64,000 nt of DNA from positions 47,606 through 111,605 of the IMG/VR virus record IMGVR_UViG_2974496990_000001, one strand, 5' to 3'. This document shows, piece by piece, positions 27,618 to 30,919 of this stretch; positions within the stretch are counted from its first letter, which is position 1, and every line of letters begins with the position of its first letter. This DNA comes from a virus. The translations under genes and the position numbers were made by a program. The notes below the pieces were generated by a model. It was given only the letters and a program-made list of their open reading frames with translations, did not search any database and was not told where the DNA came from.

Positions 27618-28034
27618 TTAGAAACCGAAACCTACACCGCCGCCATAAACAACTTCTTCGGAGGTAGCTGCTACAGAAACTTTAAATGCTGCTGGAGCAT
27701 CAGTTGGAGTGAAGTTCAGACCTGCTGCCAGGGCTTTTTCACCATCATAACCACCTACAGCAACACCAACAGAGAATTCGTGGCCGGGCACTGTAGGAAT
27801 ATTAGACATTGCTGCTACACCGGCAATACCAGCAGAAGCATGTTCTTGTGCTTTCTGAATTTTATGATCGGCGCGCTGATTAACATCACCAGTGATTACG
27901 CGATATTCGTCAGAGGCACGAATTTTTTCTTCTTTCTTAATTTGATCGATATCGATGTTAGGAATTTCGAATGCTGCCTGAGCAGTAAAAGAAGCACCAA
28001 CAATTGCGATAACAGCCAGAGTACGTTTCATCAT
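27618..28034 (-). CDS. YadA-like trimeric autotransporter anchor protein
   Basis: Signal peptide; SAGIAGVAAM..IP helix followed by four beta strands ending in Phe (GGGVGFGF). Confidence 0.85.
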   Translation of the reverse strand: MMKRTLAVIAIVGASFTAQAAFEIPNIDIDQIKKEEKIRASDEYRVITGDVNQRADHKIQKAQEHASAGIAGVAAMSNIPTVPGHEFSVGVAVGGYDGEKALAAGLNFTPTDAPAAFKVSVAATSEEVVYGGGVGFGF

Positions 28035-28209: not shown

Positions 28210-28285
28210 TGGCGGACCTAACGAGATTCGAACTCGTGACGCTCCCGTGACAGGGGAGTATTTTAACCGCTGAAACTATAGGTCC
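28210..28285 (-). tRNA. tRNA-Asp(GTC)
   Basis: Full cloverleaf, anticodon GTC, encoded CCA. Confidence 0.95.
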
Positions 28286-28456
28286 GGATTGCGCCCATCT
28301 TGTTGTGGTATTAGGCCATACCTTTCGGCTGGGTACTTCCAGGGAACAGAGCTTGGACGACTTAAGGGTGTACATCCATCTGGGCTTAGAGTCGTCTTAC
28401 AGACACGAGTATTATTCCAACTCTACCACATCACCAGCTTGGTCCCTCTTGTTTTC
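28286..28456 (-). ncRNA. Candidate pseudoknotted RNA between tRNAs
   Basis: Stems GACGAC/GTCGTC, AGGGAC/GTTCCCT and crossing TGTGGTA/TACCACA. Confidence 0.5.
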
Positions 28457-28505
28457 TGGCAGGCGCTTGAGGAATCCACCGCTCTACCAACTGAGCTAAG
28501 CACCT
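28457..28505 (-). pseudogene. tRNA with a 27-nt internal deletion (probably derived from tRNA-Trp)
   Basis: AGGTGCT acceptor, intact D-arm, GTGGATT-CCTC, AGCGCCT-G-CCA; 49 nt; anticodon 3' arm and most of the T-arm missing. Confidence 0.75.
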
Positions 28506-28508
28506 AAT

Positions 28509-28584
28509 TGGGGTGACCTATGGGACTTGAACCCATGACTACAAGAATCACAATCTTGAATTCTACCAACTGAATTAAGGCCAC
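28509..28584 (-). tRNA. tRNA-His(GTG)
   Basis: Cloverleaf, anticodon GTG, C73, CCA. Confidence 0.93.
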
Positions 28585-28617
28585 AGCAATGTTCACTCAA
28601 ATGAACGAACATTAATC

Positions 28618-28693
28618 TGGCGGATGTGCACGGATTCGAACCGCGGACCAATCACTTAACGGGCGACCGCTCTACCAACTGAGCTACACATCC
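28618..28693 (-). tRNA. tRNA-Asn(GTT)
   Basis: Cloverleaf, loop CC-GTT-AA, CCA. Confidence 0.9.
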
Positions 28694-28694
28694 T

Positions 28695-29222
28695 TTATCT
28701 TGCAGATTTTATTTTGTTTTCTTTAAATAGGTCGATAATAGAGTTAACATCGCCTTTAATCCACTCACCATCAGCATTTAAAGCTTTATGGAAAGAAAAC
28801 TCTTCTTCAAAACGTTTATCACTGAAATAGTAACATTCTAATTTATAATCACGTAAAGGGCAGTAGGATTGATAAGTGTTCAACCTATCATAAACATCCA
28901 CTGTAGAACCTATTTTATACCATCCTTCAAAAGCAGGATTAGTTACGCAATAAATGAAACCTTCTTTAATACCTTTAGAAGAATTACCATTTCTGAAATA
29001 CTTTACACGCAACAACGATAACTTGGTGAAGTTCACTTGTCGTGAAATCAATTTATCAGACTTTCGTGAAGCAGTGTCTGTATACTGGAGCTTAAAATTA
29101 GGATGAATATATTTGAAATAAATGTATTTAGCGAACTCAGTATTTATATCAAAATCAATCCCACTAATACCTTCTTCATTAAGATAAGCACTATATTGAT
29201 TAATTATTTTGGCCTTATCCAT
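28695..29222 (-). CDS. GIY-YIG (T5orf172-type) homing endonuclease, SegB-like position
   Basis: GFIYCVTN...WYKIG...DRL...GEW; AT-rich; inserted between tRNAs. Confidence 0.8.
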   Translation of the reverse strand: MDKAKIINQYSAYLNEEGISGIDFDINTEFAKYIYFKYIHPNFKLQYTDTASRKSDKLISRQVNFTKLSLLRVKYFRNGNSSKGIKEGFIYCVTNPAFEGWYKIGSTVDVYDRLNTYQSYCPLRDYKLECYYFSDKRFEEEFSFHKALNADGEWIKGDVNSIIDLFKENKIKSAR

Positions 29223-30381: not shown

Positions 30382-30458
30382 TGGTGGCCCCATCCGGACT
30401 TGAACCGGAAACCTACCAGTTATGAGCCGGGCGCTCTAACCAATTGAGCTATAGGGCC
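30382..30458 (-). tRNA. tRNA with CAT anticodon (Met, or more likely Ile2)
   Basis: Cloverleaf, CAT anticodon, GGCCCT acceptor, A73, CCA. Confidence 0.9.
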
Positions 30459-30919
30459 TGAATAATTTGTTTACCACGTTTAAATCTGAATGTGCTTGTC
30501 TGTGAATGACAATTCGGACATAATATCCTCAAATTAGAATACAAATGGTTTTTAGAATTACCATCAATATGGTCTAATTCACACTCTATAGGCTTAGAAT
30601 TCCATTCAGAAATTCCGCATTCTTCACATTCGTTCTTTTTAAGACCTTCAGAATACAATCGCTTTTTAAGTTTATACGATTGATATTGTGGATGAAGACC
30701 TTTCAAAATTTCATCAAGAGGTATTGTCTGTTTTGAATACTCAGACTTATCTCTTTTTATACCAGTTCGTCCTTTATTAGGTCGGTATAACCCATAATGA
30801 ACGGCATGTTGTTTAAATGTTCGGTGGTGGCATCCTATTAAAGAACAAGCTGCAGCCATAGAACAAGTAGAGTTTATAGCATGCTCTATTTCTTCTTTAC
30901 TATAAGTTAGTGTTTTCAT
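30449..30919 (-). CDS. HNH homing endonuclease with N-terminal HTH
   Basis: CEECG...ELDHIDG...NLRILCPNCHS. Confidence 0.9.
   Translation of the reverse strand: MKTLTYSKEEIEHAINSTCSMAAACSLIGCHHRTFKQHAVHYGLYRPNKGRTGIKRDKSEYSKQTIPLDEILKGLHPQYQSYKLKKRLYSEGLKKNECEECGISEWNSKPIECELDHIDGNSKNHLYSNLRILCPNCHSQTSTFRFKRGKQIIQAL

Follow-up and report, generated by a model that had tools for sequence, protein, structure and literature searches.

Results

A truncated tRNA-Trp gene within a viral tRNA array

We analyzed a 64,000-nt stretch of viral DNA, referred to here as the window, from a source record of 177,643 bp. Over 24 kb around the locus described below, the window is ~96% identical to Klebsiella phage vB_KM5a1-KLB31 (KLB31); over the same 24 kb, identity is ~82% both with Kosakonia phage 305 and with the Enterobacter phages that belong to Kanagawavirus (Straboviridae, T4-type). 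Judged by its sequence, the phage is T4-type and Kanagawavirus-like. The minus strand carries an array of six tRNAs, Leu(UAA), Met/Ile2(CAU), Lys(UUU), Asn(GUU), His(GUG) and Asp(GUC), identified with ARAGORN and Rfam. Next to tRNA-His, at 28457..28505 on the minus strand, lies the remnant of a tRNA-Trp(CCA) gene, hereafter the stump. It is 49 nt long and consists of tRNA positions 1-29 joined to positions 57-76, with a breakpoint that is ambiguous over 6 nt.

Read on the minus strand, the stump has the sequence AGGTGCT-TA-GCTC-AGTTGGTA-GAGC-GGTGGATTCCTCA-AGCGCCT-G-CCA. The 5’ strand of the acceptor stem, AGGTGCT (positions 1-7, 28499..28505), was assigned from the sequence and is paired when the RNA is folded alone. 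Sequence and fold likewise delimit an intact D-arm (GCTC / AGTTGGTA / GAGC, positions 10-25, 28481..28496) and the acceptor 3’ strand AGCGCCT, which is followed by the discriminator G73 and an encoded CCA (28457..28467). The acceptor pairs are A1-U72, G2-C71, G3-C70, U4-G69, G5-C68, C6-G67 and U7-A66. A 13-nt linker joins the D-arm to the acceptor 3’ strand and contains one GATTCC (28471..28476), which the repeat script and the alignment identify as the deletion junction, where parental positions 30-35 have merged with 57-62. The acceptor stem with a single G-U pair, the G73-CCA end and the intact D-arm had all been described in an earlier note on this DNA, and each is present on the minus strand at these positions.

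The stump therefore retains part of what defines a functional tRNA, namely a 7-bp acceptor stem (one G-U), G73, a 3’ CCA and the D-arm. The anticodon stem-loop is missing, as parental positions 36-43 and the stem are gone and no anticodon loop remains. A T-arm with a TΨC loop is also lacking: positions 49-56 are gone, and GATT-CCTCA is left. Neither tRNA detector called the stump. ARAGORN found six tRNAs, none at 28457-28505, and the Rfam tRNA model RF00005 gave no call at this position at its gathering score or at E<=10.

Three helices form when the stump is folded alone: the acceptor helix, the hairpin of the D-arm and a further, trivial hairpin of 2 bp. The fold energy of -15.8 kcal/mol is no better than that of shuffled sequence (z = -0.56), and the pair probability of the acceptor stem is ~0.85. 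In the fold of a precursor running from tRNA-His through the stump and the 171-nt RNA to tRNA-Asp, the probability of the stump acceptor helix was 0.002; that of the genuine tRNA-His was 0.04 here and 0.0 in KLB31. As a bona fide tRNA fared as poorly as the stump, the precursor fold was given no weight. A scan for promoters and terminators returned sites not above those of shuffled sequence, none of them specific to the stump.

Other candidate features that overlap the stump were rejected. An Rfam match to YrlA at 28480-28541 scored 23 bits against a gathering score of 69 (E = 0.11), and fuses the T-arm of tRNA-His with the D-arm of the stump. The plus-strand ORFs 28289-28507 and 28305-28499 and the minus-strand ORF 28496-28651 were discarded as genes; their coordinates run over those of tRNA genes and of the conserved RNA, in some cases in antisense.

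Neighboring genes and cassettes

The upstream neighbor, tRNA-His(GUG) (28509..28584, minus strand; ARAGORN and Rfam), is separated from the stump by 3 nt (ATT). It has G1-C72 and C73, but a U rather than a G at position -1, as do its counterparts in KLB31, phage 305 and Enterobacter phage vB_EhoM-IME523 (IME523, MN087708.1). In bacteria, G-1 of tRNA-His is described as normally encoded and as the major identity element for HisRS.

Downstream, a conserved 171-nt non-coding segment (28286..28456, minus strand) begins right after the stump CCA, and is kept in KLB31, phage 305 and IME523. One small hairpin within it changes from GCC-GAAA-GGU to GUC-UUCG-GAU in IME523, so that the helix is preserved and the tetraloop swapped; an internal hairpin occurs in three different versions. 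From its sequence features, the segment looks like a structured RNA gene. It is followed by a tRNA-Asp(GUC) cassette (28210..28285, minus strand) that is present here and absent from KLB31 and phage 305. Those two phages have an unrelated segment of ~110 nt in its place, and IME523 has nothing there. The edges of the tRNA-Asp module are sharp, with ...GGGCGCAATC on one side and ACGAGGCAGTTCAGAGAGATGAG on the other.

Three ORFs accompany the array, all on the minus strand. Between tRNA-Met/Ile2(CAU) and tRNA-Leu, an ORF of 156 aa (30449-30919) carries an HNH endonuclease domain (PF01844, 23.5 bits; cut-off 21.4). In KLB31, where this ORF is missing, 10 nt separate the two tRNAs; the ORF probably represents a mobile endonuclease that entered the array. 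A T5orf172/MUG113-domain ORF of 175 aa (28695-29222) adjoins tRNA-Asn and is common to KLB31 and phage 305. In T4, the homing endonuclease SegB drives inheritance of the tRNA region (PMC2330249). An ORF of 138 aa (27618-28034), located immediately downstream of the array, matches the YadA-like membrane anchor domain (PF03895, E = 3.9e-11); the KLB31 ORF at the equivalent place is annotated with a signal peptide domain.

The tRNA arrays of these phages vary by whole cassettes. IME523, for example, has Arg and Gln tRNAs, another tRNA with a CAU anticodon and a gene annotated as a tRNA pseudogene. The arrays appear to evolve by cassette swaps.

Intact tRNA-Trp genes at the same site in two relatives

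A similarity search of the region identified two relatives, KLB31 and Kosakonia phage 305, with an annotated tRNA-Trp behind tRNA-His. Both carry a tRNA-Trp(CCA) gene of 76 nt (KLB31, PP582757.1 76102-76177, MVRL157; phage 305, MZ348423.1). ARAGORN confirmed the CCA anticodon in both genes, whose sequences are 100% identical. In a three-way alignment, the stump was identical to the intact genes at 49/49 positions and was interrupted by one clean 27-nt gap. Synteny is also shared: in all three genomes the order is tRNA-His, ATT, the Trp gene or its stump, and the 171-nt RNA. Because the flanking genes are the same and the retained sequence is nearly identical, the alignment and the synteny show that the stump is the orthologous locus, and a derived allele, of the KLB31 and phage 305 tRNA-Trp gene and not a chance resemblance.

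The stump and the intact genes thus share a locus and all 49 retained bases. They differ in the 27 nt that the stump lacks (30-56 or equivalent), and with them the stump has lost the anticodon arm, the variable loop and a complete T-arm. The earlier note had proposed a tRNA-Trp(CCA) parent from the letters alone, and had suggested alignment to close relatives to find the intact allele. The two closest phages supply that allele, a 76-nt gene at the same site in each, and with it the identity of the parent.

A 27-nt deletion between copies of a short direct repeat

A script that compared the stump with its parent returned positions 1-29 plus 57-76, together with six equivalent descriptions up to 1-35 plus 63-76. 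The breakpoint is ambiguous because GATTCC is present at both 30-35 and 57-62; at 6 nt, with a spacing of 27, it is the longest direct repeat in the intact tRNA-Trp gene. A direct repeat is thus found at both parental breakpoints with one copy left in the stump, the pattern of a repeat-mediated deletion. That positions 1-33 are joined to 61-76, as had been described earlier, is among the equivalent solutions, and the exact 27-nt deletion then postulated between the GATTCC of the anticodon arm and that of the T-arm is borne out by the intact alleles and the repeat script. In standard numbering, the loss comprises the 3’ part of the anticodon-stem 5’ strand, the anticodon loop with CCA, the anticodon-stem 3’ strand, the variable loop, the T-stem 5’ strand, and T54-C56 of the T-loop.

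The GATTCC copies form the ends of a longer repeat. The intact KLB31 tRNA-Trp gene contains a 20-nt imperfect direct repeat, 16-35 versus 43-62, which starts with TTGGT, ends with GATTCC and matches at 14/20 positions. Its copies are offset by 27 nt, so the intact gene is predisposed to exactly the deletion seen. We surveyed indels of at least 4 nt (n=18) in ~50 kb of the window aligned to KLB31 at ~94-95% identity. In this alignment the Trp deletion was the sole indel of at least 6 nt with flanking microhomology of >3 nt, and the sole indel in otherwise identical sequence.

Since the breakpoints lie in a short direct repeat of which one copy was kept, we infer that the 27 bp were lost through slipped-strand mispairing, or another microhomology-mediated event, between the GATTCC copies. 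The 20-nt imperfect repeat at the 27-nt offset, together with the hairpin-forming tRNA sequence, may have favored this deletion. The reverse direction, in which the 49-nt form is ancestral and the 76-nt gene arose by insertion, was considered and rejected: such an insertion would, implausibly, have had to supply both a perfect anticodon arm and a perfect T-arm, and the pattern of repeats is that of a deletion.

Distribution of the short allele and of the tRNA-Trp cassette

The stump junction, and a 31-mer common to both alleles, had no matches in contigs of IMG/VR, the JGI metagenomes and GTDB, in scans that may leave out records very close to the source genome. The GenBank phage collection held two copies of the gene, both intact, in KLB31 and phage 305. 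Across these four collections the short allele is known from one genome, and its junction occurred in no other record searched. With this single-genome occurrence among the records searched, the stump does not qualify as a conserved phage tRNA-like RNA.

The block comprising tRNA-Asn, tRNA-His, Trp and the 171-nt RNA shows 99.3-99.5% identity among phages whose identity elsewhere is 82-96%, a pattern suggestive of its recent exchange or gene conversion. Zero substitutions in the 49 nt of the stump would fit a recent event. Because the whole block is ~99.3-99.5% identical, however, the absence of substitutions says little either way.

No second tRNA-Trp was found in the whole genome, which has 6 tRNAs in total. 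The Trp cassette is absent from IME523 and other members of the genus; in IME523, tRNA-His is followed by a few bases and then directly by the conserved 171-nt segment. As other phages of the genus do without the gene, tRNA-Trp is dispensable and its cassette optional. Its loss should be tolerated, since UGG can be decoded by the tRNA-Trp of the host and the cassette is optional in the genus. The paper on KLB31 counted six tRNAs and detected no association of phage tRNAs with codon usage (PMC11845039).

Discussion

The stump as a probable pseudogene

We conclude, with a probability of roughly 85%, that the stump is a tRNA pseudogene produced by a recent loss-of-function deletion at a short repeat. 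The gene is most likely dead, given that both of the closest relatives keep it intact. Some observations count against this conclusion. The 49 nt carry no substitution, as continued constraint would also give, and the deletion has spared the whole acceptor stem, G73, CCA and the D-arm. In addition, a discrete RNA could be released, since RNase P is able to cut very small RCCA helices in vitro (PMC11221534). The earlier note had left a choice between a recent pseudogene and an acceptor mimic or decoy. Occurrence in a single genome, zero substitutions, the absence of a detector call, and the loss of the anticodon and the T-arm favor the former; the latter found no support.

We considered whether the deletion could instead be an artefact of sequencing, amplification or assembly, or a variant that dominated the sequenced stock, with the real population carrying the 76-nt gene. 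The allele is known from the consensus of one IMG/VR record and was found nowhere else that we searched. In addition, tRNA genes fold into strong hairpins, and during amplification a polymerase can jump from one short repeat to another. Such jumps, however, are normally minority products and are kept out of a consensus. Collapse during assembly is not expected either, as a 6-nt repeat is far below the k-mer of any assembler, and the flanks of the stump are clean and free of errors. A stock variant would still be a real biological deletion. On balance, we regard an artefact or stock variant as unlikely.

What could the stump RNA still do?

From its position, the stump would still be transcribed within a polycistronic tRNA precursor. 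Its RNA could not decode, and would lack the stacked acceptor and T-stem that RNase P, the CCA-adding enzyme and EF-Tu bind. Having no T-loop, it would possess neither a tRNA elbow nor a 12-bp helix for EF-Tu. In bacteria, TrpRS recognizes the anticodon triplet and G73, with minor contributions from A1-U72 and G5-C68 (PMC12135181). G73, A1-U72 and G5-C68 are kept in the stump and the CCA anticodon is deleted; because the acceptor-end elements are retained and the anticodon is not, efficient charging by TrpRS would not be expected. Very small helices that end in RCCA are cut by RNase P in vitro (PMC11221534), so the 5’ end of the stump might be cut, which would free the 3’ trailer of tRNA-His. 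At most, processing would trim the stump RNA to an acceptor-stem hairpin with GCCA at its end, and degradation would follow.

A more active role can be imagined, in which the 49-nt RNA works as an anticodon-less tRNA mimic that titrates TrpRS, RNase P, the CCA-adding enzyme or a defense nuclease, or serves as a processing signal for its neighbors. The perfect preservation of the acceptor stem, discriminator, CCA and D-arm would suit such a role, as would an acceptor stem that folds by itself with a probability of ~0.85 and the activity of RNase P on small RCCA helices in vitro (PMC11221534). Phage tRNAs are also described as taking part in conflicts with tRNA-cleaving defenses (PMC10264068, PMC11555353). 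The allele, however, was seen in one genome only, and for this reason a working mini-RNA lacks support; the relatives carry the gene intact or not at all. Moreover, the fold is no better than that of shuffled sequence (z = -0.56), there is neither a T-loop to form an elbow nor the identity triplet for TrpRS, and the form of the deletion is the product expected of a random repeat-mediated accident. We therefore consider a working mimic or processing signal very unlikely. We give scarcely any credence to a related proposal, in which the stump would be released as a stable 49-nt acceptor-stem/D-arm RNA that acts as a decoy or competitor for TrpRS, RNase P, the CCA-adding enzyme or a tRNA-directed defense nuclease, or would alternatively represent a first step from a tRNA gene to an anticodon-less tRNA-like RNA.

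Comparison with known systems

The pseudogene reading has precedents in T-even phages, where deletions occur between short direct repeats and where the T4 tRNA region is dispensable and prone to deletion. As in those classic deletions, the breakpoints of the Trp deletion lie in a short direct repeat, one copy is kept, and the tRNA gene concerned is non-essential. The classic deletions, in contrast, arose in the laboratory and often removed a whole gene or several, whereas the Trp deletion is natural, intragenic and 27 bp long. A decayed tRNA gene from the same genus, ‘tRNA-Pseudo-GTA’ of IME523 (MN087708.1), also sits in a variable, cassette-like array. That gene is full length and was flagged as pseudo by the annotation tool, whereas the stump has a clean internal deletion and is otherwise unchanged.

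Several small tRNA-like RNAs resemble the stump in part. It shares a 7-bp acceptor helix ending in RCCA (GCCA in the stump) with the acceptor-TΨC minihelix, a model substrate for RNase P, AlaRS and EF-Tu (PMC11221534). The minihelix, however, keeps the T-stem-loop stacked on the acceptor over 12 bp, whereas the stump has kept its D-arm and its T-arm is destroyed: the 5’ strand of the T-stem is absent, leaving an acceptor helix of 7-8 bp. The small stable RNAs rnaC/rnaD of T4, and other tRNA-like RNAs of phages without an anticodon, likewise lie in a phage tRNA array, have tRNA-derived features and lack an anticodon. They are reported to be conserved across phages, whereas the stump is a single-genome allele of an otherwise intact gene. 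Armless mitochondrial tRNAs of nematodes and mites, at 42-54 nt, keep the anticodon arm, have lost the D-arm and/or the T-arm, and still decode. The stump is of similar size; it instead lacks the anticodon arm and cannot decode.

Implications for phage tRNA arrays

Pseudogenes in variable phage tRNA arrays are known, as are short-repeat deletions in T-even phages. The particular Trp case is new and unusually clean; the event itself is of an ordinary kind. For annotation, the stump should be labeled a tRNA-Trp pseudogene, and the phage credited with six working tRNAs, not seven. Only if the stump were a stable RNA would it bear on the origin of phage tRNA-like small RNAs. As a pseudogene, it shows that the tRNA-Trp cassette is optional in the genus, and provides a clean natural example of how genes may be lost from the cassette-like tRNA arrays of T4-type phages, by a short-repeat deletion in a hairpin-rich gene.
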